Positions 7,316 to 54,762 of a stretch of 64,000 nt of DNA are shown in pieces. The notes under the pieces are model-generated. The model was not told where the DNA came from. It searched no databases and was given only the letters and a program-made list of their open reading frames with translations. The DNA is from a candidate division WWE3 bacterium (GTDB taxonomy: Bacteria; Patescibacteriota; WWE3; UBA101185; UBA10185). Position 1 is the stretch's first letter. Every line of letters begins with the position of its first letter. The stretch covers positions 730,919-794,918 of the forward strand of contig WJKK01000001.1 of NCBI GenBank assembly GCA_014729135.1, given 5' to 3'. The translations under genes were made by a program, and so were the position numbers.

Positions 7316-7323
7316 AATAATTG

Positions 7324-8352: not shown

Positions 8353-8354
8353 AC

Positions 8355-9826: not shown

Positions 9827-9886
9827 TTTTTCCTTTTTAAAACTTCCCGTAACTTCCGCCTAAAAATCCTCCGGCTACCGCAAACC

Positions 9887-10954: not shown

Positions 10955-11035
10955 TTACTTGTTAAGAAGAAGACTAGAAAAGATTTTCAGTTTTACACTC
11001 TAAAACGAAGAGTAAAGAGTTTAGAAACAGTAAAC

Positions 11036-11587: not shown

Positions 11588-11593
11588 GAAGTC

Positions 11594-12178: not shown

Positions 12179-12702
12179 GTAACTCCCTCTTCAACTAAAA
12201 GCCCTCCCGGAGTATTTGCCAAAATAGAAACACATTCAGCACCGGTTGCATCGGATTCTCCAATAATTACAAAACAATTAGATCCGTTTGCATCACAGGG
12301 GGTTGCCGGACTCCCTCCTGTTGTGTAAGCGTTTCCTGTAAACATGTCAAAAAGAATAACGTTGGAATTTTTAACCTCAATATCTCCTATTAAGGGATCA
12401 AACGTATCCTCTTTGCTAAAGGAGTCCAAGGCTTCCGAAAACGTGTATAAATCATAGGCATTGGTTCCATCTGCAAATTGAACACCCCAATAACCCACGC
12501 CGGCATCGGCAGATTTTAGGCCACCCAAAGCATTGTTTTGGGCTGAACGAAGGCTATCTTTTAGTTGCGCTGTAGACTGTTTTAAGTTTTGGTTTCTTGT
12601 GTAATTGGTAAATCCGGGAATAGCAGCACCGGCTAGGATTGTTATGAGAGAAACTACAATTAAAAGTTCTACAAAGGTGTAACCATGGACAGATTGTTGC
12701 AT
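12169..12702 (-). CDS. Minor pilin / pseudopilin (FimT/GspH-like)
   Basis: 'VHGYTFVELLIVVSLITILAGAAIP' motif. Start moved to the internal Met so it does not overlap the upstream pilin gene. Confidence 0.55.
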   Translation of the reverse strand: MQQSVHGYTFVELLIVVSLITILAGAAIPGFTNYTRNQNLKQSTAQLKDSLRSAQNNALGGLKSADAGVGYWGVQFADGTNAYDLYTFSEALDSFSKEDTFDPLIGDIEVKNSNVILFDMFTGNAYTTGGSPATPCDANGSNCFVIIGESDATGAECVSILANTPGGLLVEEGVTCP

Positions 12703-12758
12703 GGATTTATGATAGCACAATCTAGGGATAGGGGAGGGGCTAACGGAGAAAAAGGGAT

Positions 12759-13202
12759 TTAGGGATTGGTGACGCCGTAACAGGGATCGTAGTTGTCGGT
12801 AGAGGAACAACCCACGCCATTACCGGAGGAGGTTATTTCTACTTGAGATACTATTGTATAAGTGGAGCCATCAGAGGAGTTGTAAAGGTAAGGAGAGCTT
12901 GCTCCGGAGGGGTCTTGAGGAACGGGATTCATGTAGCTTGATAAAGCAGCAACTCCCGAAATATCTGCCCAGGAATGCGGATTAGGATACACTCGATTGT
13001 CTGCAAAGTACAATTCCAAACCTGCTTGAATACGCTTTAAATCAGCAATTCTTTGCTTGTCACGCGTTTTAGCACGCAACGCCTGTGGATTTAGTACTTG
13101 CAAAACTATACCGGACAAAATTGCAATAATAGAAACCGTTATCATCAGCTCTATTAAAGTAAATCCTTTTTTATTTTTTAGATTTTTAAGTCTTTTTAAC
13201 AT
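12759..13202 (-). CDS. Type IV pilin / pseudopilin
   Basis: 'KKGFTLIELMITVSIIAILSGIV' prepilin N-terminus. Confidence 0.7.
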   Translation of the reverse strand: MLKRLKNLKNKKGFTLIELMITVSIIAILSGIVLQVLNPQALRAKTRDKQRIADLKRIQAGLELYFADNRVYPNPHSWADISGVAALSSYMNPVPQDPSGASSPYLYNSSDGSTYTIVSQVEITSSGNGVGCSSTDNYDPCYGVTNP

Positions 13203-13213
13203 AGGTCACACAA

Positions 13214-13238
13214 CCGCCCCCAAGAGGGGGCAGTTTTT
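13214..13238. terminator. GC-rich hairpin + T-run between major pilin gene and next pilin gene
   Basis: ccgccccc-aaga-gggggcag, then TTTTT on the + strand. An A-run precedes it on the - strand, so it could act in both directions. Confidence 0.4.
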
Positions 13239-13247
13239 ATGATTAAA

Positions 13248-13688
13248 TTAGTCGATCACACAAGTTCCAACAGGAGCTACCTGTGTAGCAGCACCAGTCG
13301 TAGTGTTATAAGTGCACTGGAACGAACAGGTCGGAGAAGCGGCTGCATCTGCCCCTGTAACTGTGATTGTGGGTGCGGAATAGCTGACCGAATAGCTTGA
13401 ACCGGTGGGTGTGCCACTAGGATCATTAACACCAACATCTGAGAGAGTCACACAATCGGTACCGGGAGCCTGCCTGGAAGCAGCACAAGCATGCATGGCT
13501 AAACAAATCTTATCTGTGTTAGCACGCAAAACGGTCTGATTAGCCTTAGTTCTGGTCTCCGCAGGATTAATAACTGAAATAACAACTCCAGCTAAAATAC
13601 CAATAATAACGATAACAATTAAAAGCTCGATAAGTGTGAAACCTTCCTCACGTGAACTCTTTGTCCAAAAATTAAATTTTTTATTCAC
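13248..13688 (-). CDS. Type IV major pilin candidate
   Basis: 'EEGFTLIELLIVIVIIGILAGVV' N-terminus. 146 aa, Cys pair near the C-terminus, followed by a hairpin. First pilin of the operon, after the PilX-like gene. Confidence 0.7.
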   Translation of the reverse strand: MNKKFNFWTKSSREEGFTLIELLIVIVIIGILAGVVISVINPAETRTKANQTVLRANTDKICLAMHACAASRQAPGTDCVTLSDVGVNDPSGTPTGSSYSVSYSAPTITVTGADAAASPTCSFQCTYNTTTGAATQVAPVGTCVID

Positions 13689-13918
13689 TCTTACTTCACC
13701 TCCTTTTAAAACAAACTAATAAACTAATAATAGTCTTTAAATCAAATAAAGTTTTTCACTGAAAATAAGAAAAAATCAAAATAAGTTGCAAGAGAATAAA
13801 AAACTCCCGGGAAGGAAAAACTAAAATGTATTGCACTAAAACAATTGGAGTAGGCAGGTTTCATATAAAACAAGTATCCTATCTTAAAAGCAACCTGTCA
13901 AATAAAAACTCCGAAAGC

Positions 13919-14812
13919 CTAATTAGTAGAAATTCCATCAGCTGCAAAAACTCCAAATAAGAACCCGGAAGGCAAGTGGGGAAGTGATCTGCGAGCTGTT
14001 ACAACCTTAGTAACAACTTCAGCTCCTTCTTGTAAAAGTTCTCCTTGGGACGTGATTCTATATCCTAAAGTATCAAAAGAACCATCTAAAGGCTCCAAAG
14101 CAAAGTCACCGCGTTCATTTAAAGCTACAAAAGCTAGTGACTTATCGTCTCCGGAAGGGACTGTAACTTCATAACCGGTGTATCCGGAATCAGTGCAGTT
14201 GGCGTCTGAGGAAGCTACTGTTCCTGCTGTAGAGCCGGTGTAACAAGTAGAACCATTACCGCAAATTAAACCTTTTTCCCAGCCGGATCCGTCAGCGCCT
14301 CCGGTTAGAACGTAAAACACATCGGTGTCCCCTCGCCAACAAATGCTGACACCTCCGGAATAACTACCCAAAGGAATTGAGTTTACTTCTCCGGCTCCGG
14401 TGGAAACATAGTGAAAACCTGTATCGCTGTCACCAATGTATTCCTCTACCTTTACAACAGCACGTGAATTTATGGCATCATTCTCGGAGGAGGGGAATGT
14501 AACGATACAGTCGGCAGGAGGACTCTCAAGGGAAGTACAAGTGCCGGAAGCCCCTTCTAACTCCGGCGTGGTGTAGGACAGAAAGTGCTCAACGCCTCCT
14601 TCTGCAGCTGCTAAAACTCTAGAGGCTGTATCAGTTGTAGAAGTTCGCGAAACCGAGGAAAGTGTACGCAAGGAAGTGCTAACACCTACAGAAAGCGCAA
14701 CCGTTAAAGCTACAATTACAAATAAAAGTGTTTGACCTTCTTGACCTTCCCGTGATTGAGCTACTTTATTTTTGTTTTCTAAATGTTTATTTTTTAACGC
14801 CATAAAATCCAT
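13919..14812 (-). CDS. PilX-like / pilus-associated membrane-anchored secreted protein
   Basis: Hydrophobic N-terminal helix 'TLLFVIVALTVALSVGV' with no +5 Glu. Ser/Thr/Gly-rich ectodomain. Lies between the giant protein and the major pilin. Confidence 0.3.
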   Translation of the reverse strand: MDFMALKNKHLENKNKVAQSREGQEGQTLLFVIVALTVALSVGVSTSLRTLSSVSRTSTTDTASRVLAAAEGGVEHFLSYTTPELEGASGTCTSLESPPADCIVTFPSSENDAINSRAVVKVEEYIGDSDTGFHYVSTGAGEVNSIPLGSYSGGVSICWRGDTDVFYVLTGGADGSGWEKGLICGNGSTCYTGSTAGTVASSDANCTDSGYTGYEVTVPSGDDKSLAFVALNERGDFALEPLDGSFDTLGYRITSQGELLQEGAEVVTKVVTARRSLPHLPSGFLFGVFAADGISTN

Positions 14813-14827
14813 ATCTAAACCCCCTTA

Positions 14828-17800
14828 CTACTCCTCAACTTCCCAAGAAATATCTACTAAACTTAAAAACAGACTTTCAAAGTCGGTTCCTGCTGCCACA
14901 CTATCCATAAGCTGTTTGTGCAAATAATAAGCATAAGCAGGATCATAATGAACGGCAACTCCGGGATACATGTTTCGCAACTCACCCAAGTCGTTGAATG
15001 TACGGTTGCGGTTAAAGTTCATAGTACCTCCTGAAATAAAAGCACCTTCTAAAACTAGCGAAGTGTCTCCCGGGTCGTCAATTTCTTCATTTTCAAATTC
15101 AACAGAGGGGAAGTTTATGTCACCTAGGGCAAAAACAGAGGCTCCTATTGTGACATCAGAGGCATCTCCGGCGGGAACGTCTACACCCAATTCTTCGGAG
15201 AAAGTCACACCTCCATTAACAACGAGCAAAATCTTTCTATTGTCATTACCGCTGTAAAAGGGCTCCTCAAAAGTGATGTCGCCATCAATATAGATCACAA
15301 CCACACCATCAGAAGCAATATCACCGGAATAATCTCCCTCGCCTCCGATGTCTGCTAAAACGTCTTCAAAAGTGGAAGCAGACATGGAATAGACCATTGT
15401 GGGGTCTAAACCGGAAAAGTCTTCTGTAGAACTAATGTCCGCAAACTCCCCACCGGATAAGTCACCGGAGGCAATTGCCAGAAAAAGGGGAGAAGAAGCA
15501 TAGCCGTACTCAGGGGCGGAAGAGATGGCACTATTACTGTCAGAGCTTTCAACGTCAGATAAGTCTCCCGCAGATAGGGCAAAATCATCTGTCATGTAGT
15601 TGTCATAAACTCCGGGGGTTTCGGGGGTAATCATTGTAATAGCACTTCCGGAGTAAACACCTCCATTAACTACGGTAAACCAACCATCTAAAGCGGAGGT
15701 AAGCTCGTAACCTAGATTAATGGTTACATTACCGGGTACTGTGTAAGGTCCTGTGGCTAAAAGCCCCGGCCCTACACTTAAGGTTCCCGGAGTAACACAG
15801 CCCAGCTGAAAGTTTGTGTCTGTTGGGGCATCCAGGTCGTCCAATTCCAGATACATACCTGTAACATCAGAACCAACAGGGAAGGCGTCACTCTGATTAT
15901 TACTACTATATGCTCCTGTACCGGAATCTATACTAAACTCAAAGTTTTGTTGCGGATCAACAGGATCCGGAACTTCTGCGGTCATTGTAAGATCCGGAGA
16001 TGAAGCAAAATAAGCTAAAGTTTCTCCTTCAGCAGGATTGCAGGTAGTAGTGTCAGAAACAGTGGCGTCGAAAATGGTCCCGGAAATTTGCGGATACCGT
16101 AAAGTTACATTTTTGCTACAAGTAACACTAGCCTCACAAGAAGAATCGCTTAGGTTATCTGAAACTTCCAAAGATATAGGGGCGGAAAATCCACAAGAAG
16201 ATTCGTAAAAATTAGGGGCTGTATAAGAAGTGGAAATTTGTCCTGTAGAAACTCCTGAGGCTTGCTCAGGATTAAAAGAACCCAAGCAAGTAAGAGGTGT
16301 GGAACTCCAAGAATAATCCATATTGTAAGTATCGGAAATAGTGGAAGTGTAAAGCTCAGTGTCTCCAAAAAGTACTGTGCCAGAACCACTTATTGCTGTA
16401 CAGGAGGGGGTATCATTTTTTTGGATAGTGGTTCCTGCACAAAAAACCTGGGAACTATCATCACAGTTATCTGCGTAGGCGTGTATATGAACAGTTCCAT
16501 ATCCTGGATGATTCGCCAAGTTTACAGTTGCTTTCCAAGTGTTCCCACCTACATTAGAAGCCGAATACCGTACAATATCATCTTGACCACCTGTAGCCGT
16601 CCAAGTAGGAAATTTCACTGTCTCAGCGTTGGACACATTGTTAATATAAATATCCACTGTTGAATCAGAACCCAAAACGCAATCAACGCCAGAGCCGTCT
16701 TGCGTAACGGTAATGGAACTAGAACCACAAGTTGGAGCGGAACTATAACCACAATCATCTCCGCCGCCGCCACAATCACCGTCTGCAGGAAGACACGCGG
16801 AAATACCCTGACCACCCCCACAAGGGTCTGTTGGAAGCCACCGAGGATCACAGGTAGAATGGCACGTATCGCGTATATCACCGCATGTCCAATCACAGGA
16901 ACAGTTTGGGGGATCTTCTGGATCTTCTGGAGGGTCTTCAGGGTCAGGATTTACCCAATGACAATTCCAAGAGTCGCAGGAATAGGCACGTAAATCGACG
17001 CAACCGCCATAACTGGGCTCATAATAACAAGGATTCTGGCCAGTAGCACAGGTATCACAATAGGGGTCACCCTCCTCGCATTCACAGACAGTAGTACAAG
17101 GGGTGCCCGAACAATAAGCATATCCCCTCTTCAGAACCCCTAAACCCTCCAGGAAACCAATTAAACCACCATTCTTAGAAATATCCACCAAACCAACATC
17201 AGCATTCAAAGCCGTAAAAAACTCCTCGGGAGGAGAGTAATTAGATGAAACGACCTCAAAATCAGACGTCAAATAATCAACGCCCTGATAAAGCAACCCG
17301 CTAAAAATCTTCTCAGCCACAACTTCATTGCTTTGCAAAACAGCAGGCGAAATGCTAACTTCTAAAACAACATCTTCATCCTGCGCCAGAAAATTCAAAC
17401 CCATCTCCACATCTGTCCCCGAAAAAATCTTGGCGGAACTCAAATCATCCGTTAAATAAATCGTCAAAGTTTCAGGTGTAACATATTTCGGTGGAACCTC
17501 AGAGTCATTTTGCAAATACGTCTTGACTTCATCAAGCGAATAGGTGTAACGTGCAGCATTTTCTGTAAAAAAACCTTTAGTGTATAAATAAGCGGAAAAC
17601 TTTTGCTTTCCTGCAGGAGTAAACTCAATTTCAAAATCCTCAATTTGAGACTCTACGCGCACACTATCCTCAAATAAAGAAATATTAGAGTTGTCTCCGG
17701 ATTCCTGTATTTTTGAAAATGGTGAAGGAGTTTCGTCCCGAGAGGGGGATTGATTTGTTTTGGCAGCTCGTGGGGTGTCCTTTAGAAATAGTTTGGAAAT

Positions 17801-17923
17801 TTGTTCTACAGAGAGGGGGAAACTATAAGTGGTTATGGAAAATGTCAAACCTCCAAGCACAAAAATCAATAAAAAGGTCAAAAGGGCTAGAATTTTCAAA
17901 CCTTTAGGCAGTTTCAGCTTCAT
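14828..17923 (-). CDS. Giant (1031 aa) secreted Cys-rich protein, candidate pilus tip adhesin (PilY1-analogous)
   Basis: N-terminal signal/TM 'ILALLTFLLIFVLGGL'. Central cluster of about 40 Cys ('CSGTPCTTVCECEEGDPYCDTCATGQNPCYY...'). 'PEDPPEDPEDPP' linker. First gene of the pilus locus. Confidence 0.35.
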   Translation of the reverse strand: MKLKLPKGLKILALLTFLLIFVLGGLTFSITTYSFPLSVEQISKLFLKDTPRAAKTNQSPSRDETPSPFSKIQESGDNSNISLFEDSVRVESQIEDFEIEFTPAGKQKFSAYLYTKGFFTENAARYTYSLDEVKTYLQNDSEVPPKYVTPETLTIYLTDDLSSAKIFSGTDVEMGLNFLAQDEDVVLEVSISPAVLQSNEVVAEKIFSGLLYQGVDYLTSDFEVVSSNYSPPEEFFTALNADVGLVDISKNGGLIGFLEGLGVLKRGYAYCSGTPCTTVCECEEGDPYCDTCATGQNPCYYEPSYGGCVDLRAYSCDSWNCHWVNPDPEDPPEDPEDPPNCSCDWTCGDIRDTCHSTCDPRWLPTDPCGGGQGISACLPADGDCGGGGDDCGYSSAPTCGSSSITVTQDGSGVDCVLGSDSTVDIYINNVSNAETVKFPTWTATGGQDDIVRYSASNVGGNTWKATVNLANHPGYGTVHIHAYADNCDDSSQVFCAGTTIQKNDTPSCTAISGSGTVLFGDTELYTSTISDTYNMDYSWSSTPLTCLGSFNPEQASGVSTGQISTSYTAPNFYESSCGFSAPISLEVSDNLSDSSCEASVTCSKNVTLRYPQISGTIFDATVSDTTTCNPAEGETLAYFASSPDLTMTAEVPDPVDPQQNFEFSIDSGTGAYSSNNQSDAFPVGSDVTGMYLELDDLDAPTDTNFQLGCVTPGTLSVGPGLLATGPYTVPGNVTINLGYELTSALDGWFTVVNGGVYSGSAITMITPETPGVYDNYMTDDFALSAGDLSDVESSDSNSAISSAPEYGYASSPLFLAIASGDLSGGEFADISSTEDFSGLDPTMVYSMSASTFEDVLADIGGEGDYSGDIASDGVVVIYIDGDITFEEPFYSGNDNRKILLVVNGGVTFSEELGVDVPAGDASDVTIGASVFALGDINFPSVEFENEEIDDPGDTSLVLEGAFISGGTMNFNRNRTFNDLGELRNMYPGVAVHYDPAYAYYLHKQLMDSVAAGTDFESLFLSLVDISWEVEE

Positions 17924-17999: not shown

Positions 18000-18033
18000 G
18001 AGGCCGACCCAGACACGTGTCCGTGTCGGCCTC
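18000..18033. repeat. Compound palindrome at the low-GC / high-GC junction
   Basis: gaggccgac (18000-18008) ... gacacgtgtc (perfect 10-bp palindrome, 18012-18021) ... gtcggcctc (18025-18033). The outer arms are exact reverse complements. Confidence 0.6.
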
Positions 18034-18064
18034 AGAAGTCGAAGTTGAAGTTGGGGAGGGGGGT

Positions 18065-18649
18065 CTAGGGGAGGGGGTGCCACCGACCAGCGTCGGAGCT
18101 GGGGATGGAGTAGGCGGCGGGCAATCCGTCAACGTAACGGACGGCAACAGCCGTTCCATCCTCCAGGAGGACAACAGCAGCACCCGCGCCGCCAGGGTAC
18201 TCCGCCAAAGGTGCGCCCATCGGCGACGTGGTCCACCGACCCCACTGATATCCCCAGAGAAGAAAATTGGAGCCGTCGCTACGCCGGAGGGCGTAGGGTT
18301 CGTAAACGACCTCGGCGGGGCAGCTGGCGTCGTCACGCAGGGCCGCGACGAACAGCTGATCTGCCGCAACGGGAACCTTATACCAGGGCGTCTGGTATGC
18401 CGAAACAGCTTCGTCACTCAGGAGCGTGCGCGCCTGCGCCAACCGCTCCTCATAGGCCGCACGGGCGGACGAATCTGGTGCGACGCAGATGGACATGTAC
18501 GTGCCGTCTGCTCGGCGGGTGATCGCCGCGAGCACCGCGTCGGGGTCAACCGCCGGCGGAGCCGAGGAGACACCATTGGGAACGAATAGCACGATAATGA
18601 GAACGACGCATACAGTAATCAACGCCAAACGAACCAGGTTGGTCTTCAT
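18065..18649 (-). CDS. Secreted hypothetical protein encoded in a high-GC island
   Basis: 194 aa from the ATG at 18649, preceded by a perfect SD 'aggaggtg' with a 5-nt spacer. Signal-peptide-like 'LVRLALITVCVVLIIVLFVPNGVSSA'. Codon usage is strongly GC3-biased, unlike the rest of the window. Confidence 0.5.
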   Translation of the reverse strand: MKTNLVRLALITVCVVLIIVLFVPNGVSSAPPAVDPDAVLAAITRRADGTYMSICVAPDSSARAAYEERLAQARTLLSDEAVSAYQTPWYKVPVAADQLFVAALRDDASCPAEVVYEPYALRRSDGSNFLLWGYQWGRWTTSPMGAPLAEYPGGAGAAVVLLEDGTAVAVRYVDGLPAAYSIPSSDAGRWHPLP

Positions 18650-18746
18650 CTTGTCACCTCCTGTGACCATCAGTGCGAAAAGAGCCTGCAACTTCAACTA
18701 TTCAAATTTCAAACTGTCTCGGATTATAGGATAAAACCTCCCAAAT

Positions 18747-20203: not shown

Positions 20204-21061
20204 TTGAGTCAGGACAACCAATATATTACCGTACAAGAGCTTTGTAACTGTTTAGATATTTCAAAATCCTCCATTTATTATGAAAAGAAGCTTCCCAAAA
20301 AAGACTTGAAGCTAAGTAAGCAAATTATTGATGTAATTAACAAGAATAAGACATATGGTCACAGACGGGTTGCCTTAGAGCTTAACATTAACAAGAAAAG
20401 GGTACTTAGAGTAATGAGGCTATTTAATATCAAGCCCTTAATAACCAGGTCTAAAAAGCCCCGATATAAATATAAGAAGGGAGAGTCTAGATTTGAGAAT
20501 CTAATTAAGACTATATGTCCAATAAGGCCTTATGTAATATTAGCTACTGATTTTACCTATTTGAGGTTTAAAAATTCCTTTTTGTATTTAGCTACTGTAT
20601 TAGACATATATACTAAGGAAATATTGGGTTATGCGGTTTCTACCAGACATACTCAAAACTTAGTATTAGAGGCTGTTAAATATGGATTAAGTAAATGCAA
20701 AACCTTACCTCTTTTTATACATTCTGATGAAGGTAGCGAATACATGTCAGATGCGTACATAAATTATGTACACTCCCAAAATATTGAACTATCAACAAGT
20801 GATATTGCTTCCCCTTGGCAAAACGGATTTAAAGAATCCTTTTATTCCCAATTTAAACTTGATCTGGGTGCAAAGAATCTAAACAGATTTGATACCTTGG
20901 GAGAAGTTGTAGGACATATTTATAAAACAATCTATTATCACAATAACCAAAGAATTCACACGACTATAAAAACACAACCTGTTAAATTTAGAAATCAAGA
21001 ATTAGCTAAATGGTCTGATGTTTGTTGTGATAGATTGGTGTCCAAAAAAATGGGTACTTGA
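20204..21061 (+). CDS. IS3-family transposase OrfB (integrase core, DDE)
   Basis: 'HRRVALEL...VLRVMRLFNIKP', 'ATDFTYL', 'HSDEGSEYMSDAY', 'SPWQNGFKESF' rve-domain motifs. Frame is open back to 20168. TTG start in the track. Confidence 0.75.
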   Translation: MSQDNQYITVQELCNCLDISKSSIYYEKKLPKKDLKLSKQIIDVINKNKTYGHRRVALELNINKKRVLRVMRLFNIKPLITRSKKPRYKYKKGESRFENLIKTICPIRPYVILATDFTYLRFKNSFLYLATVLDIYTKEILGYAVSTRHTQNLVLEAVKYGLSKCKTLPLFIHSDEGSEYMSDAYINYVHSQNIELSTSDIASPWQNGFKESFYSQFKLDLGAKNLNRFDTLGEVVGHIYKTIYYHNNQRIHTTIKTQPVKFRNQELAKWSDVCCDRLVSKKMGT

Positions 21062-26576: not shown

Positions 26577-27410
26577 TTATAAGTACCAATTTAAGAACAA
26601 GTCTCCTGCTACAAAAACCAGAAGACTGCCTAGAATCATGAAAGGGCCAAAGGCAATCTTATCCTTCATTCCTTTTTTGCCTAGGGCCATCAATCCCAAA
26701 CTTACAACAGATCCTAAAACAAAAGAAGAGAAAATTGCAATAATATTGTAGGGAAAGCGGTTAAAAAGTCCTATTAAAAAAGCAAGGCGAACATCGCCAA
26801 AACCCATCCCTTTACCCTTAGTAATAGCATGTAAAAACCAAAAGAAAAGACCTAAAGAGACTGCAGAAACAACGTCAGACGATTTAAAACCAAACACCAC
26901 GTAGAAAACTCCAACCACTGCCAAACCTGTAAAAATAGCTTCATTAGGAATAATTTGATATTTGGTGTCTGCTAAAAAGATAACGATATATACCGAAAAG
27001 ATTAGTAAAAAATAGGCAAATAGCAAAACCGGATAGATATTGAAGCCCAAACCAAAAGCAGAACCCAGGGATCGAACTAAACCCGCATTTAATCCGGAAT
27101 GCAAAGGGGCGCCACCAAAAACTCCTGATGAAACTGCAGCCAACAAGAATATAACTCCTGTTAAAACCTCCGATAGGGGATAGGCCACTGATAAACGCTC
27201 GCTGCAGTAGCGACATTTCCCCTTGTTAAACACAAAAGAAAAAACGGGAATTAAATCGGCAACTTTTAAAACGTTGTCGCAAAAATCGCAATGAGACCGA
27301 CCAAATAAAATGGATTCTCCTGAAACCAAGCGATCAGCAACTAGATTTAAAAAGGACCCCACAAAAAGCCCCATGACAAAAACAAAAAAGTAGTAAAAGT
27401 ATATCTCCAT
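26577..27410 (-). CDS. pilD: Prepilin peptidase PilD (A24 family)
   Basis: 'CDFCDNVLKVADLIPVFSF...CRYCSERLS' tetracysteine motif and 'GMGFGDVRLAFLIGLF' catalytic Asp region. Start taken at the internal Met. Confidence 0.8.
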   Translation of the reverse strand: MEIYFYYFFVFVMGLFVGSFLNLVADRLVSGESILFGRSHCDFCDNVLKVADLIPVFSFVFNKGKCRYCSERLSVAYPLSEVLTGVIFLLAAVSSGVFGGAPLHSGLNAGLVRSLGSAFGLGFNIYPVLLFAYFLLIFSVYIVIFLADTKYQIIPNEAIFTGLAVVGVFYVVFGFKSSDVVSAVSLGLFFWFLHAITKGKGMGFGDVRLAFLIGLFNRFPYNIIAIFSSFVLGSVVSLGLMALGKKGMKDKIAFGPFMILGSLLVFVAGDLFLNWYL

Positions 27411-27481
27411 TAAAGTGTTCTCAATTTTAAAGTAGTCTCGGATAGCGTTTAAAACTTGGCATCCCCATATCAAAGAACCGG

Positions 27482-27991
27482 CTACAAACTCAAGTCAGTC
27501 CCAATCTCATATAAACCGGGAGAAACTCCACCATCAAGACGCATTTTGTTAGCATTATCCGCCGACTCCAAAGGCACGCTCAACTTAAACTTTTGAGTTT
27601 GACCATTTGCCACAAATTCATAAACATAAGGCTTCTCGTTAAGGGAATCTATGGGCAATTGATTCAAATATTTACGCAATCCGGGAGTTTCCTCCATAAC
27701 ATTAAACTTTACCCAGCCTTTTCCATCCACTTTAAAAGAACCGGTTAAAGTGGTGCAACTATCACAATCTGAAGTATCCTCCAAGGTAATAAGCTCTTCT
27801 GCCAAGGAAAGCTGCAAGGCCTTGTTAAGTTCATCCAAATCCTGGATTCTTTCGGCATCTCGACTTTTTGCAAGAATTGCCTGCGGATCTATGGCTACAA
27901 AGAGTATTCCGGTTATTGCCACCGCAACTCCTAAAACAATTATTAATTCGGGAAGTGTGAAGCCGGTCTTTTGGCAGGTTTTTTTATTCAT
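27482..27991 (-). CDS. Type IV pilin / pseudopilin
   Basis: 'KTGFTLPELIIVLGVAVAITGILFVAI'. Start taken at the internal Met (MNKKTCQ). Confidence 0.65.
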   Translation of the reverse strand: MNKKTCQKTGFTLPELIIVLGVAVAITGILFVAIDPQAILAKSRDAERIQDLDELNKALQLSLAEELITLEDTSDCDSCTTLTGSFKVDGKGWVKFNVMEETPGLRKYLNQLPIDSLNEKPYVYEFVANGQTQKFKLSVPLESADNANKMRLDGGVSPGLYEIGTDLSL

Positions 27992-28034
27992 ACACCTAGT
28001 ATAACAAAGTAGAAAAGTAGGACGGAAAAGAGTT

Positions 28035-28101
28035 AGGCTGTGTTTCTTTCGAACGAATTTTGGCGTACTCGCCAACCTGAGAGAGAAAGAACATACAGCC
28101 T
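28035..28101. repeat. Long imperfect hairpin between pilC and pilin gene
   Basis: aggctgtgtttctttc (28035-28050) / gaaagaacatacagcct (28085-28101), with a 34-nt loop. Confidence 0.4.
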
Positions 28102-28136
28102 AACTCGCCCCCTTGCACTACTCCCAGCTTAAAAAA

Positions 28137-29339
28137 CTAAATTGAAGTAGTAATATTATAAATCGGCGTAATAATCGAAACAATCAAAAGCCCCACCATA
28201 CTTCCCAATAAAACCAAAATAATCGGCTCCAAAGCAGCCGACAAATTCTCGATAGCCGAATTCGTCTCACCCTCATAATAATCAGCCACCCTACCCAAAA
28301 CCTCATCCATCTTACCCGTCTCCTCACCAACTCCCGCCATCTGCCCCAACAAAGCCGGAAAATTCTTATTCCCTCTAAAAAAGTCTGACAAAGAATTGCC
28401 CCGCTCCACATACTCCGCTGCATCCAGGGAAGCCTGCTTTAAATCGTGACTGTTAACAACCGAAGAAACGATGTTAAGCGACTCCACAATTGGAATAGCC
28501 GAGTTAATAAGCAAACTCAGTGTACGAGCAAAAGAAGTAATTTCTTTATTCCTATTAATCTTCCCAAAGACCGGAAGCTTGAAGCCAATTTCAGATAAAA
28601 GCTTCTTTCCATAATCGGTATTCTTAAAATAGCGAAGTGAAACCATAACAGCTCCAATAATTAACAGCAACAAAGCCGTATGCCCCGTCATAAAGTCAGA
28701 AATTGCAATCATAACCTTAGTGGGCAAGGGGAGGGGAACATCTAGATCTTTGTACATGTCCGTTAACTGCGGCACAACCACAATCATCATTAAAATGAAA
28801 ACACCAACCATTGCCAACATAACAATCGCCGGATAAATCATGGCTCCCTTAAACTTAGACTTTAATTCGCGCTCAGCCTCCATTGTTGAGGCCAGGCGCT
28901 TTAAAACAGTGTGCAAATTTCCTGAAGCCTCACCTGCACGTACCAATGCCTGATAAGTGTTAGAAAAAATGTTGGGATACTTTGCAAAGGAATCTGAAAG
29001 GGACAAACCTCCCTCAACATCCCGCAAAATGTTAGAAAGCACCTTGCGAAACTTGTAATTGTCAGTCTGACCGATTAGAACCTCTAAAGATCGCGACAGA
29101 GGCAATCCGGCTGAAATCATTGTAGAAAACTGACGCGTAAAAGTAACAACTTGATCCGTTGGGACCCCTCTAAAAGATAAAATAGACTTTAAAACATCGC
29201 CTTGAGACTTTTCCAAATTAACAATAAAAAGATCCTCCTCCTTTAAAAGTCCAACAGCACCTTCCTTTGTTTTTGCATCAACGGTTCCTGATTTTTTCTT
29301 GCCCTCATGATCTAGGGCAGTGTATTTATATACGGGCAT
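28137..29339 (-). CDS. pilC: Type IV pilus inner-membrane platform protein PilC (GspF family)
   Basis: 400 aa with two GspF repeats and three TM segments. Confidence 0.8.
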   Translation of the reverse strand: MPVYKYTALDHEGKKKSGTVDAKTKEGAVGLLKEEDLFIVNLEKSQGDVLKSILSFRGVPTDQVVTFTRQFSTMISAGLPLSRSLEVLIGQTDNYKFRKVLSNILRDVEGGLSLSDSFAKYPNIFSNTYQALVRAGEASGNLHTVLKRLASTMEAERELKSKFKGAMIYPAIVMLAMVGVFILMMIVVVPQLTDMYKDLDVPLPLPTKVMIAISDFMTGHTALLLLIIGAVMVSLRYFKNTDYGKKLLSEIGFKLPVFGKINRNKEITSFARTLSLLINSAIPIVESLNIVSSVVNSHDLKQASLDAAEYVERGNSLSDFFRGNKNFPALLGQMAGVGEETGKMDEVLGRVADYYEGETNSAIENLSAALEPIILVLLGSMVGLLIVSIITPIYNITTSI

Positions 29340-29351
29340 AAACTTCTTTTT

Positions 29352-30410
29352 TTACTTTAGCAAGCGCCTAACCTGATCCGGCTTATTTGTAAAGCGCAGC
29401 GCTTTATCGGGATCAACTAATCCTTGCTCTATTAAGGTAGCCAAGCTTCTTTCGAGGGAGGTCATGCCTACATTGGAGCTTGTATGGATTACGTTGTCAA
29501 TTTGCTCAAATTTACCTTCACGAATTAGGTTACGAACTGCAGAAGAACCCAGCAAAATTTCAGTAGCCGGGTAAATTTCACCGGATTTAGTAGGCACTAA
29601 GCGCAACGAAACCACAGCTTCTATAATGGCTGCAAACTGAGACTGGATCCCTCCATGTTTATCCTGAGGGAACACGTTAATTATTCGCTCAACTGTTTGA
29701 GAGGCCGAATTCGTATGCAGCGTGGCAAAAACCAGGTGACCTGTTTCCGCAATCCGCAAAGCTGCCGAAACCGTTTCGCGGTCACGCATCTCTCCAATAA
29801 AAACGACGTTAGGATCCTGACGCAAAACTGACTTTAAAGCATTATCCCAAGAAGCTGTATCCACAAAAAGCTCCCGCTGCTCCACTAAAGACTGCTTGTT
29901 ATTAAAAATGTACTCAATGGGATCCTCCAAAGTAATAATATGCTCGGCACGATTTTCGTTAATTTTGTCAATAATTGCAGCTATTGTAGTAGACTTTCCA
30001 TGACCTGCGGGACCTACCACTAAAATCATCCCTTGCTTTAATTCTGCAAGCTGGGAAATGCTTGGCGGAAGATTTAACTCCTCTAAGGAAGGAACTACAT
30101 TAGGAATGTAACGCATTGCAACGGAGGGGTAGCCCTTTTGATAAAAGGCGTTAACTCTAAAACGGGCTTTCTTCCCTAAAGCCACCGAAAAATCAAGCTC
30201 TTTGCTAACCTCCAAAATATCCAACTGATCTTGATCCAAAACTTGCGCCAAAAAGGCGTTAACGTCCTCTATGGTTAGCTGCGAATAACCCGGAAGCTTT
30301 TGCAATTGGCGATTCACACGCACCGTGGGCTCTGACCCAACAACAATATGAAGGTCCGAAGCCTCCACGTTTACAACTTCATCTAAAATCTTTGATGCAT
30401 TAAAACTCAT
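29352..30410 (-). CDS. pilT: Twitching-motility retraction ATPase PilT
   Basis: 352 aa. 'GPAGHGKSTT' Walker A and 'FIGEMRD' follow the PilT/GspE family pattern at PilT length. Confidence 0.8.
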   Translation of the reverse strand: MSFNASKILDEVVNVEASDLHIVVGSEPTVRVNRQLQKLPGYSQLTIEDVNAFLAQVLDQDQLDILEVSKELDFSVALGKKARFRVNAFYQKGYPSVAMRYIPNVVPSLEELNLPPSISQLAELKQGMILVVGPAGHGKSTTIAAIIDKINENRAEHIITLEDPIEYIFNNKQSLVEQRELFVDTASWDNALKSVLRQDPNVVFIGEMRDRETVSAALRIAETGHLVFATLHTNSASQTVERIINVFPQDKHGGIQSQFAAIIEAVVSLRLVPTKSGEIYPATEILLGSSAVRNLIREGKFEQIDNVIHTSSNVGMTSLERSLATLIEQGLVDPDKALRFTNKPDQVRRLLK

Positions 30411-30419
30411 ATTATTTTG

Positions 30420-32192
30420 CTATTTTGCTACTCGCATTACCTCCTCGAGAGTGGTGGTACCCTCTAAAACTCTTAAAACACCGTCTTGCTGCAAACTAAG
30501 CATTCCCTCTGCCTGCGCCTGCTGATGCAACTTTCCGGCGGAGGCGTGGTCTAAAACAAGCTCCGACAAGGCCTCACTCATCGACAAAACCTCAAAAATT
30601 CCAACTCGCCCGGAATAGCCCGTGCCATTACACTCGTCGCAACCCTTACCTCGATATAACTTAATATCATTATTACGCAACTTTTTTAATGATTCAATTA
30701 ATTGCTTATCTTTTGACTGCGAAAGGAGTTTTGACTCTTCCATACCATGCATAATACCTTTAATCTGCTGCTTTACTTCCTCGGGAGGATCTATTTCAGT
30801 TTTACAAACGGGGCAAATTCTACGAACAAGGCGCTGAGCAACAATGGCGTTTACTGTGGACACCAGTAGGTAGTCCTCAATGTCCATGTCAAGCAACCGT
30901 GGAAGCGCACCTGCGGAGGAGTTGGTGTGCAGCGTTGCCAGTACCATGTGACCTGTTAGTGCAGCATGAATTGCCAGTTCCGCAGTTTCACCGTCGCGAA
31001 TCTCACCGACCATGATGACGTTAGGGTCCTGACGAAGGAAGGCGCGAAGGCCGTTTGCAAATGTAAGCCCGGCTTGCGGATTCACCTGCACCTGATTAAC
31101 TCCCGGTATTCTAATTTCTACCGGATCCTCCAGCGTCATGATGTTAACACGCACTGTGTTTAGCTTGTTAAGCGCGGCTGCCAGCGTTACGGTTTTACCG
31201 GAGCTTGTGGGGCCTGTTACCAGAAGCATTCCTGTGGGTTTCAAGATAGCTTCTTCTACACGCTTTAATGAAAGCCCGCGCAATCCCAAATCCTTAAAGG
31301 AGTGAACAGAGCCCTCATCCTGCAAAAGTCGAATAACAACTTTTTCCCCGTTTACTGTAGGCAAAGTGGAAACACGCAAGTCCGTGGCCGTATCACCTAC
31401 TTGAACTTTAAAACGGCCGTCTAAAGGTTTGCGCTTTTCATCCAGCTTCATGTTGGCTAAAATCTTTATGCGAGCAACTACCGGATCATGCATCTGCTTA
31501 GGAAGCGTGCGCTTTTCCTCAAGAACACCATCAATTCGGTAACGCAATCTGGTGCTATCCTCATGCGGTTCAATGTGAATGTCGGAGGCTCCTGTTTTTA
31601 CAGCGGTCTCTAAAATCATGCCCACAATCCTTGCAATAGGAGCATCCCGAAGTGTTGCTGTAGATATCTCCTCGCTGGTTTCATCCAGTTTTAAAGTAGT
31701 TTGATTGATTTCCTCAAGGGCAGCGCTTATTTCCTCGCCAATGGCCCTCCCTTGTAAGTCGCCTAAAACATGAGAAATCTCCCCAGGAGTTGTTATGAAA
31801 GGCTTAACATGAACGTTCTCCTTTTTTTCTATGAACTCTATTGTGGGAAGATCCAGGGGATCCACCATTGCCAGTGAGAGCTTATTTTTTTCTTTGTCAT
31901 ACTCAAAGGGAATGACTTGCTGATTTTTTGCAAGGTCAATGGTTACGTAGTCCATTAGGGAAGGGTCTATTTCCTTGTCACGAAGCGATACAAAAGGAAT
32001 GCCGTAGGATTCACCGTAAGCTTTAATGAAGTCTAGTTCTGAAACGTAGTTGTGCTCTTTAATTATTTGGGTAACGGGTTTTCCGGTGTTAATGTTTTCA
32101 AATTTTATAGCCGAAAGTTGATCGTCGGTGATGAGTTCTTTATCGTGAAGGATGTCTTCAATTGATTTTGTGTCGGTTAGTTGAGTAGGCAT
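30420..32192 (-). CDS. pilB: Type IV pilus assembly ATPase PilB (GspE family)
   Basis: 590 aa. 'VTGPTSSGKT' Walker A, 'MVGEIRD', tetracysteine 'CPVCK...CDECNGTG'. Confidence 0.8.
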   Translation of the reverse strand: MPTQLTDTKSIEDILHDKELITDDQLSAIKFENINTGKPVTQIIKEHNYVSELDFIKAYGESYGIPFVSLRDKEIDPSLMDYVTIDLAKNQQVIPFEYDKEKNKLSLAMVDPLDLPTIEFIEKKENVHVKPFITTPGEISHVLGDLQGRAIGEEISAALEEINQTTLKLDETSEEISTATLRDAPIARIVGMILETAVKTGASDIHIEPHEDSTRLRYRIDGVLEEKRTLPKQMHDPVVARIKILANMKLDEKRKPLDGRFKVQVGDTATDLRVSTLPTVNGEKVVIRLLQDEGSVHSFKDLGLRGLSLKRVEEAILKPTGMLLVTGPTSSGKTVTLAAALNKLNTVRVNIMTLEDPVEIRIPGVNQVQVNPQAGLTFANGLRAFLRQDPNVIMVGEIRDGETAELAIHAALTGHMVLATLHTNSSAGALPRLLDMDIEDYLLVSTVNAIVAQRLVRRICPVCKTEIDPPEEVKQQIKGIMHGMEESKLLSQSKDKQLIESLKKLRNNDIKLYRGKGCDECNGTGYSGRVGIFEVLSMSEALSELVLDHASAGKLHQQAQAEGMLSLQQDGVLRVLEGTTTLEEVMRVAK

Positions 32193-32310
32193 AGGCAGTT
32201 TGTGTTTTAGACTGAGTTAATGATAGCACACCCGAAAAGGAATAGGCTTCTTAGGTAAATGAGAGCGAAGCGATCATTTAGCTATGCTGGCCCTTAAATT
32301 GAGAGATAAC

Positions 32311-32340
32311 AAAAAAGCCCTCGTATAAACGAGAGCTTTT
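32311..32340 (-). terminator. Rho-independent terminator on minus strand
   Basis: Minus strand reads agctctcg-tttata-cgagggct, then TTTTTT. Confidence 0.5.
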
Positions 32341-32396
32341 GTGCCTCTGCCCGAGCTTCTAAGAAGTTCGAGATTGGCGGACATTGAGATGTGTTT

Positions 32397-32425
32397 ATTG
32401 TACAACCGGCATGCTAAGGTGTCAA
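32397..32425 (-). promoter_or_regulatory. Near-consensus sigma70 promoter on minus strand (TTGACA-17-TACAAT)
   Basis: Minus strand TTGACA (32425-32420), a 17-nt spacer, TACAAT (32402-32397). It would start an ~80-nt transcript ending at the 32311-32340 terminator. Confidence 0.45.
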
Positions 32426-32446
32426 GGAAAAAAGGAATTTAAAATG

Positions 32447-32518
32447 TGGTGGAGATGACGGGGATCGAACCCGCCCGGCAGAGTCTCAATGTCCACCTAT
32501 CCACCATGGATCATCCCC
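32447..32518 (-). ncRNA. tRNA-like element (72 nt) without a canonical anticodon arm
   Basis: Minus strand GGGGATG...GCGGG-TTCGATC-CCCGT-CATCTCC-A-CCA. It has a 7-bp acceptor stem with G3-U70, a consensus T-arm, discriminator A and encoded CCA. No 5-bp anticodon stem can be drawn. Confidence 0.45.
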
Positions 32519-32682
32519 ACACACATACTATTTATAACAAAATGCATTAGGCAATAAAAGAGGGAATATTCTAGTTAGAATAGCCAAAAACCGACAGAAA
32601 CCACTGGCAAGCAATGCAGATCTCCAGTTAAATAGAACATACCTCAAAACAGCTTCCTCAATAGATCTGCTAATATCTAAAT

Positions 32683-33390
32683 GTGACACAAAAAAGCAAC
32701 TCAAAAAGTCCAACTCAAATCCTAAAAGGTACAATTTTAATTCATGGAGGAAGCGCCGCCTCCAGAGAAAAAGGGATCACTAAAATCTTAAAAAACGCTC
32801 AAGTAGACACCTCCCAAATAAAAAACAATCCCGATATTAAAATTCTTAAAAATAAAAAGGGTAAAAAAAGCATTGGAATAGGGCAGGTAAGGCAGGCTAT
32901 AAAATTTTTAAGTCAAAAGCCTTACATGTCACGGCGCAAGTTTGTAATTGTTAAAAATGCACATTTTCTAACACGGCAGGCACAAAACTCCTTTTTAAAA
33001 ACGCTGGAAGAACCTCCACAATATGCCACGCTCATTTTGGAGACTGCTAATAAAAAGGAGCTTTTGGATACCATTCTTTCGCGCTGTCAACAAATTAAGA
33101 TTGCTCCGGCAGCAAGAGAAGTAGAGCAGGCGCAAGCTTTGCCAAAAATTAAGCGTCTCTCTTTGGGTAAAAAAATGGAGTTAGCGGAGAAATTGGCAAA
33201 AAAATCTCATACGGAGGTGGCTTCGCTTTTGGAAAGGTGGATTGAGAGTGAACGTGCTTTGTTGAGGGAGTCATCGCAAGAGGATGTTATAAAAAATCTT
33301 AAGGTTTTAGAGCAGGTCCGCCAGGATTTAACAAGTACTAATGTGAACTTGCAGTTAGCCCTGGAATTTTTGCTTTTGAAGTTAAAATAG
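32683..33390 (+). CDS. holB: DNA polymerase III delta-prime subunit (clamp-loader AAA+)
   Basis: 'AQNSFLKTLEEPPQYATLILET' and 'LLDTILSRCQ' are delta-prime motifs. Confidence 0.7.
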   Translation: MTQKSNSKSPTQILKGTILIHGGSAASREKGITKILKNAQVDTSQIKNNPDIKILKNKKGKKSIGIGQVRQAIKFLSQKPYMSRRKFVIVKNAHFLTRQAQNSFLKTLEEPPQYATLILETANKKELLDTILSRCQQIKIAPAAREVEQAQALPKIKRLSLGKKMELAEKLAKKSHTEVASLLERWIESERALLRESSQEDVIKNLKVLEQVRQDLTSTNVNLQLALEFLLLKLK

Positions 33391-41664: not shown

Positions 41665-42645
41665 CTACTCGACATCAGGCAGTACATCCTTATGGAAACG
41701 CTTATGCGTCTCCTTAAGGCGCTGATTTGTAACATGCGTATAAATCTGGGTCGTCGAAACATCCGAATGACCCAAAAGCTCCTGCACAGAACGCAAATCA
41801 GCTCCCTCCTGTAAAAGCCCCGTAGCAAAAGTGTGACGCAACGTGTGGGGAGTAACATCAACCGCCAAACCAGCCCTACGCCCATACTTCTTAATCATCC
41901 GCTGAACACTGCGAGCACTCAAGCGCAAAGACTCTCCATCGGGATCCTCATCCTCCATACTCTTACCGGAATAACGCAAAAACAAAGGCACAAACTCATC
42001 CCGACGGGTTGACAAATAACGACGTATCCACTGGCGGGCGGAAGGACTCAAATAAACAGTACGAGCCTTGCGTCCTTTACCTATAACCGTAAATTCACCT
42101 GTCTCCAAATTAATGTCATCCACATTTAAACCAACAAGCTCACTAACACGCAAACCCGTACTAAAAAGCGTTTCCAAAATTGCACGGTCACGAATACCTG
42201 AACGCTTGTTTAAATCCTGGGCAGAAAAGAGGCGTTCGAGCTGATCCTCATTTAAAACCTTAGGAACTCTGTCGCCACTTTTACCTAGATTGATTTGATC
42301 AGGAGAAATCACACTTAAATCACGTTCCACAATTAGATATTTCAAAAAAGCGCGAATTGCAACCATAAAAGTTTTTTGCGTCGACTGCTTATAACCGTCA
42401 TCTGAACGGGAATTTTTTCGACGATTTAAAAAGACACGATATTTACGAAGATTTTCCATTTGCAGATCCGCCGGATAAATCTTTTCTTTTTTTAGGTAAT
42501 CTTTAAGCCAGCCAAAAAAATCATTTAGGTAAAAATCATACATGCGAACAGTGCTTTGGGCCAGATTTTTTTCAATCTCGCAATATTCAAGATAATCAAT
42601 TAAAAGTGCGTCTAGTGAGTTTTTTCCTAAGGATGTGATACTCAT
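41665..42645 (-). CDS. Tyrosine site-specific recombinase XerC/XerD-type
   Basis: 'HTLRHTFATGLLQEGADLRSVQELLGHSDVSTTQIYTHV' is the R...HxxR...Y catalytic signature. Confidence 0.8.
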   Translation of the reverse strand: MSITSLGKNSLDALLIDYLEYCEIEKNLAQSTVRMYDFYLNDFFGWLKDYLKKEKIYPADLQMENLRKYRVFLNRRKNSRSDDGYKQSTQKTFMVAIRAFLKYLIVERDLSVISPDQINLGKSGDRVPKVLNEDQLERLFSAQDLNKRSGIRDRAILETLFSTGLRVSELVGLNVDDINLETGEFTVIGKGRKARTVYLSPSARQWIRRYLSTRRDEFVPLFLRYSGKSMEDEDPDGESLRLSARSVQRMIKKYGRRAGLAVDVTPHTLRHTFATGLLQEGADLRSVQELLGHSDVSTTQIYTHVTNQRLKETHKRFHKDVLPDVE

Positions 42646-45156: not shown

Positions 45157-45170
45157 TTACTCGCAAGCTA

Positions 45171-45272
45171 GAGTAAGTACCCCCTTTTTCTCTCACGTTT
45201 CGCGTGACTTTCCTTTTTTAATAGAAAAGTAAGTCCCGCTGCAAAAGTTCTTTCAAAAGGGGGTACTTACTC
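45171..45272. repeat. 18-bp perfect inverted repeat pair between convergent genes
   Basis: gagtaagtaccccctttt (45171-45188) / aaaagggggtacttactc (45255-45272). A second IR, aagatatctctctttt (45289-45304) / aaaagagagatatctt (45341-45356), follows. The spacer has a small hairpin plus a T-run. Confidence 0.6.
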
Positions 45273-45358
45273 TGAGGATACGGCAAGAAAGATATCTCTC
45301 TTTTGAGTGACATTTCGGAGCAAAGCGACGTCGTGGAACGAAAAAGAGAGATATCTTC

Positions 45359-54675: not shown

Positions 54676-54762
54676 TGGTGGGCGAGGAGGGAATCGAACC
54701 CTCACAGGATTGCTCCCATCGGTTTTTGAGACCGACGCGTATACCAGTTCCGCCACTCGCCC
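54676..54762 (-). tRNA. tRNA-Leu (anticodon CAA), type II with long variable arm
   Basis: Minus strand GGGCGAG-TG-GCG..CGC-G-TCGGT-CTCAAAA-ACCGA-(17-nt variable arm)-GAGGG-TTCGATT-CCCTC-CTCGCCC-A-CCA. All stems pair. Anticodon loop is CT-CAA-AA. Confidence 0.85.

Follow-up and report, generated by a model that had tools for sequence, protein, structure and literature searches.

A tRNA-like RNA gene with alanine identity and a complementary small RNA neighbour between holB and pilB of a candidate division WWE3 bacterium

In a 64 kb stretch of DNA from a candidate division WWE3 bacterium (the window, analysed at its full length), we describe a 72-nt element on the minus strand which combines an alanine-type acceptor stem and a canonical T arm with an unusual core. 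A second small RNA unit of ~80 nt lies directly beside it, and the complementarity between this RNA and the core of the element is beyond chance. Both units are found in an insertion that is specific to this lineage. The sequence features support a tRNA-like gene that has alanine identity, lacks a normal anticodon arm and is not an ordinary tRNA; its assignment to the tRNA-like domain (TLD) of transfer-messenger RNA (tmRNA) is weak. As far as our incomplete search reached, the element is a single-genome orphan, not a conserved system. In our view the best, and still tentative, explanation is that it may be an alanine-accepting decoy RNA, the weak core of which would be docked and controlled by the neighbouring antisense RNA, or which would itself sponge that RNA.

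The two RNA genes and their complementarity

The features of the element and of its neighbour are as follows, with positions given in the window.

32447–32518, minus strand: 72-nt tRNA-like RNA gene with an alanine-type acceptor stem, a canonical T arm and a non-canonical 37-nt core
32458–32474, minus strand: T arm GCGGG-UUCGAUC-CCCGU, from the sequence and the model alignments (posterior probability '*' throughout)
32499–32511, minus strand: D-arm-like hairpin AUCCA-UGG-UGGAU, 5 bp with a 3-nt loop containing GG, from the minimum free energy structure of RNAfold
32477–32501, minus strand: core of the element (nt 18–42), antisense to the neighbouring RNA through inverted repeats I1 and I5
32531–32539, minus strand: putative extended −10 promoter TGtTATAAA of the tRNA-like gene, picked out by eye and unsupported by the promoter scan
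32397–32425, minus strand: sigma-70-type promoter TTGACA-17-TACAAT of the small RNA, matching at 11 of 12 positions in the promoter scan
32311–32391, minus strand: small RNA of ~80 nt, with its start placed from the promoter position
32311–32340, minus strand: intrinsic terminator with a 12-bp stem, a 4-nt loop and U6, from the promoter and terminator scan (stem plus T6 at 32340–32313)
32274–32384, minus strand: 36-codon open reading frame read from the sequence, with its AUG inside the seed of the small RNA, running through the terminator to a UGA at 32276–32274

The minus-strand sequence of the element, from 32518 to 32447, is GGGGAUGAUCCAUGGUGGAUAGGUGGACAUUGAGACUCUGCCGGGCGGGUUCGAUCCCCGUCAUCUCCACCA. 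An earlier note on this DNA had described a perfect 7-bp acceptor stem carrying the alanine-identity G3-U70 pair, a discriminator A, an encoded CCA and a consensus T arm, and each of these was found. All seven acceptor pairs form, from G1–C68 through G7–C62, with G3·U66 at the position equivalent to 3:70 of a tRNA, and the 3' end consists of the discriminator (A73) followed by the encoded CCA. Position 8 is an A in place of the U8 of tRNAs. A U at −1 precedes the mature G1, which would lie 13 nt downstream of the putative TGtTATAAA promoter; this motif resembles the TGnTAnnAT style of the conserved pilB and holB promoters in relatives. There is no reading frame inside the 72 nt, nor is there a helix P2, a pseudoknot, a resume codon or a stop.

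RNAfold assigns the 72-mer a structure of −25.5 kcal/mol consisting of the acceptor stem, the T arm, the 5-bp hairpin with a 3-nt loop (nt 8–20) and a stem within the core, GGUGGA/UCUGCC, with 6 bp including two G·U pairs and a 9-nt loop. The hairpin stands in the place of the tmRNA D-loop motif GGnUUCGAC, the positions of which are deleted in both of the model alignments described below. The core is predicted to be weakly folded and to be the least stable part of the molecule. The earlier note had held that the 18 nt where an anticodon arm is expected could not form a 5-bp stem, which is contradicted by the 6-bp stem that RNAfold places there. Its description of the element as lacking an anticodon arm therefore holds in that no normal arm is present, but the weak stem and the hairpin leave room for a degenerate cloverleaf, because RNAfold pairs both the linker and nt 8–20.

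The near-consensus promoter and the terminator that had been proposed to bracket an ~80-nt unit were both recovered. The small RNA would comprise an unpaired 5' seed (32372–32389, antisense to element nt 18–35), a 9-bp hairpin, a second antisense stretch (32339–32351) and the terminator. It folds strongly in RNAfold (z = −5.05 versus shuffles), with the 5' 14 nt essentially unpaired. A match to Leu/Phe leaders in Rfam (27 bits, against thresholds of 50–55) involves the terminator hairpin only, and this identity was rejected. T-box-like sensing was likewise set aside, as the small RNA has no UGGN for pairing with the NCCA end. The 36-codon frame is probably not a gene: by our estimate a stop-free frame of ~25 codons has a chance expectation of roughly 30%. 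Its peptide is charged, weakly basic and not hydrophobic, and a type I toxin was rejected because the 36 residues are charged and not membrane-like. The frame passes the terminator without a stop, so that the terminated transcript would be a stop-less mRNA. The arfA and brfA frames likewise run through a terminator, a formal likeness.

The exact complementarity of 11 and 7 nt between the two RNAs that was first reported is borne out and extends further, to 18 and 13 nt. Inverted repeat I1 (32372–32389 and 32484–32501) spans 18 nt, is 89% complementary and contains the perfect 11-mer; 16 of the 18 positions form Watson–Crick pairs and one a G·U pair, and one of the two mismatches is G·U-compatible. 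Inverted repeat I5 (32339–32351 and 32477–32489) spans 13 nt, is 85% complementary and contains the 7-mer. Dinucleotide shuffling of the 136 nt downstream, repeated 200,000 times, produced an 11-mer complementary to the 18-nt linker on 23 occasions and never covered the whole linker by two pieces. The duplex between the element core and the small RNA has an energy of −28.2 kcal/mol, compared with −17.8 ± 2.9 for shuffled sequences, and an equally good value was reached by 5 of 2000 shuffles. Folding programs are unable to show the acceptor stem in one structure with the intermolecular helix, because in the joined sequence the two make a pseudoknot; the two should be physically compatible because the 5' end of the small RNA is free.

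The window has a single further locus with comparable coverage. This place, the sole other one with such long-range complementarity, is the intergenic region that precedes a 942-aa gene (45170–45357), where we note a perfect 19-nt inverted repeat with arms ~65 nt apart, AGAGTAAGTACCCCCTTTT and AAAAGGGGGTACTTACTCT, and a second perfect one, AGATATCTCTCTTTT and AAAAAGAGAGATATCT. We also note that the pilB mRNA contains GGACAUUGAGG at 30875–30885, which can form 10 Watson–Crick pairs and one G·U pair with the 11-nt seed of the small RNA; by chance, the window should contain about one near-match of this quality.

The arrangement of I1 brings to mind an invertible promoter, in which the 18-nt repeats would be recombination sites around a promoter segment and their overlap with the tRNA-like gene would be incidental. 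The arms of I1 (89%, 94 nt apart) do enclose the promoter, the transcript would start 1–2 nt before the right arm and a pilus operon lies downstream; phase-variable pili are a classical phenomenon. We nevertheless consider this very improbable. The terminator and pilB's own promoter separate the segment from pilB, the nearest recombinase-like frame that we saw is ~9 kb away (41665–42645), a 94-bp segment is short and the second complement of 7–13 nt is left without explanation.

Class assignment and known relatives

ARAGORN called a single gene in the window, a tRNA-Leu with anticodon CAA at 54676–54762, and Rfam at gathering thresholds found the same gene only; we see no other tRNA gene in the 64 kb. 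At the element ARAGORN made no call and there was no RF00005 (tRNA) match of at least 29 bits. The ordinary tRNA that the earlier note had allowed for was thus not seen and, with A8 as a further point, was rejected. At permissive thresholds both ends of the 374-position tmRNA model, RF00023, align to the element with 33.9 bits against a threshold of 47; 15 nt of the element replace 308 model positions. A covariance model built from 67 viral TLD-only RNAs, which we call R1, aligns over its full length with 39.9 bits (E = 1.6e-6), a match carried by the acceptor stem and T arm alone. In both alignments the TLD D-loop consensus GGaUUCGAC and the GGAC before the T arm are unmatched or deleted, which makes binding of SmpB by the element doubtful. 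As a control, tRNA-Ala and further tRNAs whose stem is GGGGAUG reach 36.3–41.0 bits on R1, like the element. Because the R1 score is no higher than that of tRNA-Ala, an alanine-type top half with a non-canonical core is supported but a tmRNA TLD specifically is not; the ends alone cannot separate sub-threshold tmRNA matches of this kind from tRNA-Ala. The A at position 8 appears to be the sole feature that leans towards tmRNA. Of the proposed resemblance to the tmRNA TLD there remain the aligned acceptor and T-arm ends, set against a sub-threshold score, the missing D-loop and GGAC motifs and the equal scores of tRNA-Ala.

The likeness to tRNA-Ala and to the alanine minihelix is close: the GGGGAUG/CAUCUCC stem, A73, CCA and T arm occur unchanged in tRNA-Ala genes (L269 and L280), which reach 36–40 bits on R1. 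Unlike tRNA-Ala, the element has A8 and no normal D arm, anticodon arm or variable loop. A complete identity set for alanyl-tRNA synthetase without a usable anticodon would suit a dedicated non-ribosomal donor, supplying alanine to cell-wall or lipid aminoacyl transferases outside translation, and Gram-positive bacteria are known to have such non-proteinogenic tRNAs. Those tRNAs have a T stem weakened for EF-Tu. The T stem here is G–C rich and so not weakened, the element is not conserved and no Fem- or MprF-type gene was noticed in the window, where no systematic search for one was made. We regard such a donor as the least probable of the readings considered.

Two-piece permuted tmRNA (α- and β-proteobacteria and cyanobacteria; RF01849–51 and RF04321) shares with the present pair the idea of two base-paired RNAs for ribosome rescue. 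Permuted genes begin with the 3' acceptor piece and carry the 5' acceptor strand on the coding piece; here a single RNA contains both acceptor strands, and the partner pairs with its core. The permuted model RF04321 reaches 16.1 bits in the window against a threshold of 47, and what it takes as the 5' acceptor strand, GGGUGUG (~32231), belongs to the pilB promoter that is conserved in relatives; a permuted tmRNA was therefore rejected.

The split trans-translation RNA suggested in the earlier note fares little better. In such a device the 72-mer would be the tRNA-like piece and the core-docked small RNA would template a very short tag. Docking would put the small RNA at the point of the TLD from which tmRNA helix P2 departs, the hairpin that follows the docking helix has a UAG in its loop, which recalls tmRNA helix 5, and two-residue tags exist. 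However, none of the three frames of the small RNA is usable as a tag: the frame that opens with an Ala codon beyond the docking helix (GCC AAU CUC GAA...) reaches the terminator without a stop, and the sole stop-terminated frame, which ends at that UAG, reads ...RQSRTS* without a GCN resume codon. Pseudoknots are lacking, ARAGORN and the permuted model fail, a third-strand architecture is without precedent and there is no conservation. We judge a split tmRNA of this kind extremely improbable. We give only slightly more weight to a more broadly conceived bipartite ribosome-rescue device in this bacterium of the candidate phyla radiation (CPR), in which a partner docked at the 25-nt core of an Ala-charged tRNA-like RNA would serve either as a minimal template, in a three-strand split tmRNA, or as a stop-less mini-mRNA or antidote that senses or gates the activity of that RNA.

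Message-less TLD genes are common in viruses. A loose pattern scan of IMG/VR gave at least 120 stretches, including 74 unique genes of 62–85 nt with a perfect 7-bp acceptor stem, and from an overlap of 6 of 16 between two scans we estimate a total of ~300 viral TLD-only genes. Their consensus consists of GGGGnnGA, a D-loop GGnUUnGAC, a self-paired P2 hairpin, GGAC, the T arm and ACCA, with covariation in the T stem and in P2. ARAGORN misses nearly all of these genes or stretches them into false tmRNAs. Examples among loci L127–L264 are L207:4468–4534, L244:12435–12515 and L247:6815–6881, and several of the genes lie inside phage tRNA arrays.

Mycobacteriophage DS6A is recorded as having a TLD-only tmRNA (PMC4131195). 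Like the RNAs of DS6A and the other viruses, the element is ~70 nt long, starts with GGGGnnGA, has G3·U70 in a 7-bp acceptor stem, a T arm and an encoded ACCA, and is without pseudoknots and a tag frame. In contrast to all 67 of the aligned viral RNAs, it has no GGnUUnGAC D-loop, no self-paired P2 hairpin and no GGAC before the T arm. It differs further in being chromosomal, in a CPR bacterium, and in having a complementary neighbour; none of the 74 viral genes has a core complement of at least 10 nt within 250 nt on either side (148 flank comparisons).

According to PMC4131195, which cites Mao 2009, and PMC11915505, a TLD-only molecule strongly inhibits tmRNA, perhaps through titration of SmpB. 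The 2025 tmRNA database paper describes tmRNA forms without a coding sequence (CDS) in mitochondria, two plastids and DS6A; the database holds only 79 phage sequences, with DS6A as the one named TLD-only form. Its Supplementary Table 2 covers 6765 Patescibacteria genomes, with 5252 standard tmRNAs and three entries classed as 'Standard NoCDS', and the WWE3 genus 9FT-COMBO-53-11 is named as possibly without a tag frame (the taxonomy contains a WWE3 bacterium RBG_19FT_COMBO_53_11). A tmRNA-like gene that lacks a message would thus not be without precedent in this division, and most relatives have a normal tmRNA. By description, which is the basis of this comparison, the element resembles the tmRNAs of jakobid mitochondria and Mallomonadaceae plastids and the three Patescibacteria NoCDS forms in being tmRNA-like, without a tag frame and in a reduced genome, one of these groups belonging to the same candidate division. 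Those genes are taken to be vertically inherited ssrA, whereas the element lies in a lineage-specific insertion. Message-less tmRNA-like RNAs may titrate SmpB, or they may rescue ribosomes without tagging.

These precedents bear on a reading in which the element is the genome's only ssrA, its message part lost, acting in SmpB-dependent rescue without tagging, with the small RNA accessory or unrelated. Besides the NoCDS entries and the WWE3 genus, the small genome (an 864-kb contig) and the lack of a standard tmRNA in the window are consistent with it. The window is only ~7% of the genome, however, and ~78% of Patescibacteria genomes have a standard tmRNA. The element is not at an ancestral ssrA site, as relatives have no RNA gene there, and the TLD-specific D-loop and GGAC are absent. 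On balance we consider a sole ssrA improbable. A search for SmpB motifs in the window found none. A related candidate, an internal deletion of the genome's own ssrA, was set aside as unlikely because the D-loop motif adjacent to the 5' end would have survived.

The earlier note had also raised an integration-site remnant. Viral contigs that carry the element's identical 3' end proved to be attachment-site fragments, tRNAs and ordinary tmRNAs. Attachment-site duplications retain the 3' part only (26 viral contigs), but the element has both halves, and this origin was rejected.

The holB–pilB locus and its surroundings

The element is located between the divergent genes holB (DNA polymerase III delta') and pilB. 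The product of the PilB reading frame (30420–32192) is 100% identical to a protein encoded on an 864-kb contig of a candidate division WWE3 bacterium. We compared the locus with those of six WWE3 relatives with PilB proteins 84, 80, 78, 76, 72 and 67% identical (loci L121, L123–L125, L253 and L254). In all six holB adjoins pilB, with spacers of about 86, 158, 174, 344, 408 and 112 nt. Both ends of the spacer are conserved, as the holB promoter TGCTAATAT and the pilB promoter TGnTATnAT, and it follows that the two RNA genes sit in an insertion of ~0.35–0.4 kb.

32240–32655: lineage-specific insertion with both RNA genes, boundaries approximate, from alignment to the 86-nt spacer of L121
32220–32228, minus strand: native pilB promoter, extended −10 type, TGcTATCAT; TGnTATnAT is found upstream of pilB in six of six relatives

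An imperfect 16-nt direct repeat (32239–32254 and 32563–32578) flanks the insertion. A further inverted repeat, I8, was considered as a boundary of the module and rejected, as it overlaps the conserved holB promoter and is probably a chance occurrence. The pilB promoter lies downstream of the small RNA terminator, so the small RNA unit is not needed for pilB expression and is a separate gene rather than a pilB leader; a role as leader or attenuator was rejected on the same ground. The non-syntenic position argues for an added module, not an ancestral ssrA.

The promoters of this lineage, both in the window (32220–32228 and ~32660–32683) and in relatives, look like extended −10 elements of the form TGnTAnnAT that lack a −35 box. 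The holB transcript seems to have no leader or almost none, and the starts of pilB have a conserved CTGCCTATG upstream and no Shine–Dalgarno sequence. The −35/−10 consensus promoter of the small RNA is atypical for the lineage, which would fit a foreign origin.

In the relatives the longer spacers hold small insertions of other, unrelated kinds, with inverted or direct repeats at their ends (L123:3690–3990, L124:3770–3950 and L254:2340–2480), for example AGGACACTTCT...GAGAAGTGTCCT and CCGGAAAGGTCGGACCCTC, the latter present twice. Small mobile elements seem to have a hot spot in the holB–pilB spacer.

Elsewhere in the window there are two large blocks of type IV pilus genes (6878–17923 and 26577–32192), which include several pilin-like genes, a gene for a 1031-aa protein, pilM/N/O-like genes, pilB, pilT, pilC and a prepilin peptidase gene. 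An island of ~650 nt (18000–18650) has 64–66% G+C, compared with ~41% for the genome, and contains long frames on both strands, including one of 210 aa (18065–18697); it may be foreign DNA or an assembly chimera. Near it is an IS3-type transposase-like frame (20204–21061).

Interpretation of the pair

In the reading that we prefer, the insertion between the holB and pilB promoters would have brought two tandem small RNA genes. The first RNA would present the alanine-accepting top half common to tRNA-Ala and the tmRNA TLD, without a decoding arm or a message. Judging from its sequence, it could probably be trimmed by RNase P and charged by alanyl-tRNA synthetase; as it can neither read codons nor add a tag, its role would be that of a decoy or competitor, aimed at the proteins to which Ala-tRNA or tmRNA binds. 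The second, an RNA of ~80 nt, would be expressed from its own strong promoter, and its free 5' end (18 nt) and internal stretch (7–13 nt) would pair in the cell with nt 18–42 of the first. Such pairing would open the weak core to give a near-continuous duplex of ~25 bp, which would either block partner binding or create a target for RNase III, so that the second RNA would control the tRNA-like RNA or be sponged by it.

Several observations are consistent with this. The top half is intact in all seven acceptor pairs, G3·U70, A73, CCA, the T loop and the U at −1, and both tmRNA-type models align to the element end to end. The pairing target coincides with the least stable part of the element. 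The strong inhibition of tmRNA by a TLD-only molecule serves as a precedent for a decoy. The window also contains an RNase III-like gene (2567–3265), the product of which has the motif ERLEFLGDA, which we take to be an RNase III signature. The U at −1, the plausible extended −10 motif and the intact state of both the top half and the neighbouring unit speak for a gene pair that works or is very young.

Pairs of neighbouring small RNAs with partial complementarity of ~18–21 nt are known from the antitoxin RNAs of type I toxin–antitoxin loci such as zor–orz and tisB–istR, and 3'ETS-leuZ is a tRNA-linked sponge of small RNAs. Like zor–orz and tisB–istR, the present pair consists of two adjacent, separately promoted units, one of which has an unpaired 5' seed of ~18 nt complementary to the other. 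Unlike them, it has a tRNA-like RNA as the target instead of a toxin mRNA, its 36-codon frame is not hydrophobic and it is not conserved.

Other observations weigh against the decoy reading. The module is present in none of the six relatives with the same holB–pilB neighbourhood, where R1 also has no match; the lack of conservation that the earlier note had named as one half of its refuting condition is thus seen in these six. No homologue was found in JGI metagenomes, IMG/VR or phage or plasmid collections, and neither the viral scans nor blastn turned up a similar core. The metagenome scan, which required a UUCGAUC T loop and would let homologues with other T loops escape, gave five unrelated matches; blastn with the 391-nt module against phages and plasmids gave generic T arms only; and a viral scan for standard-length tmRNAs with the element's T loop gave none. 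A loose mini-TLD pattern run on the genome collection returned mostly 85-nt actinobacterial tRNAs, and the short matches among those listed were unrelated, which does not establish absence from GTDB genomes. The D-loop and GGAC motifs missing from the element are kept by every one of the viral RNAs in R1. The 72-mer fold is no more stable than those of shuffles (z = +0.30). Promoter sites with at least 11 of 12 matches number two in the window, compared with 2.3 in shuffles; the promoter match of the small RNA alone is therefore not special, and what is notable is its place directly upstream of a terminator.

In a rival account the pair is a non-functional relic, namely a recently inserted or rearranged fragment with a decayed copy of tRNA-Ala or ssrA, the complementarity being the trace of a short inverted duplication and nothing being under selection. 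Its occurrence in one genome and its absence from the six syntenic relatives, the other repeat-bounded insertions in their spacers, the flanking 16-nt direct repeats and a thermodynamically unremarkable core without tRNA or tmRNA consensus are all in keeping with such a relic. Against it, the elements for processing and charging, the promoter and the perfect 12-bp terminator are all intact. The complementary pieces are not collinear (a–b...a'...b'), unlike those of a single inverted duplication, and together they cover the whole linker exactly. Taken by itself the relic is a rather unlikely account, and it is nearly as likely as the decoy reading.

The more general outcome of this work is that hundreds of TLD-only genes stand unannotated in viral contigs. 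Going by its sequence, the element appears to be a known kind of object, with an antisense partner that is new but unconserved. A chromosomal copy with an antisense partner would, if true, offer a compact example of one RNA controlling another, here a tRNA mimic, in bacteria whose translation machinery is minimal.

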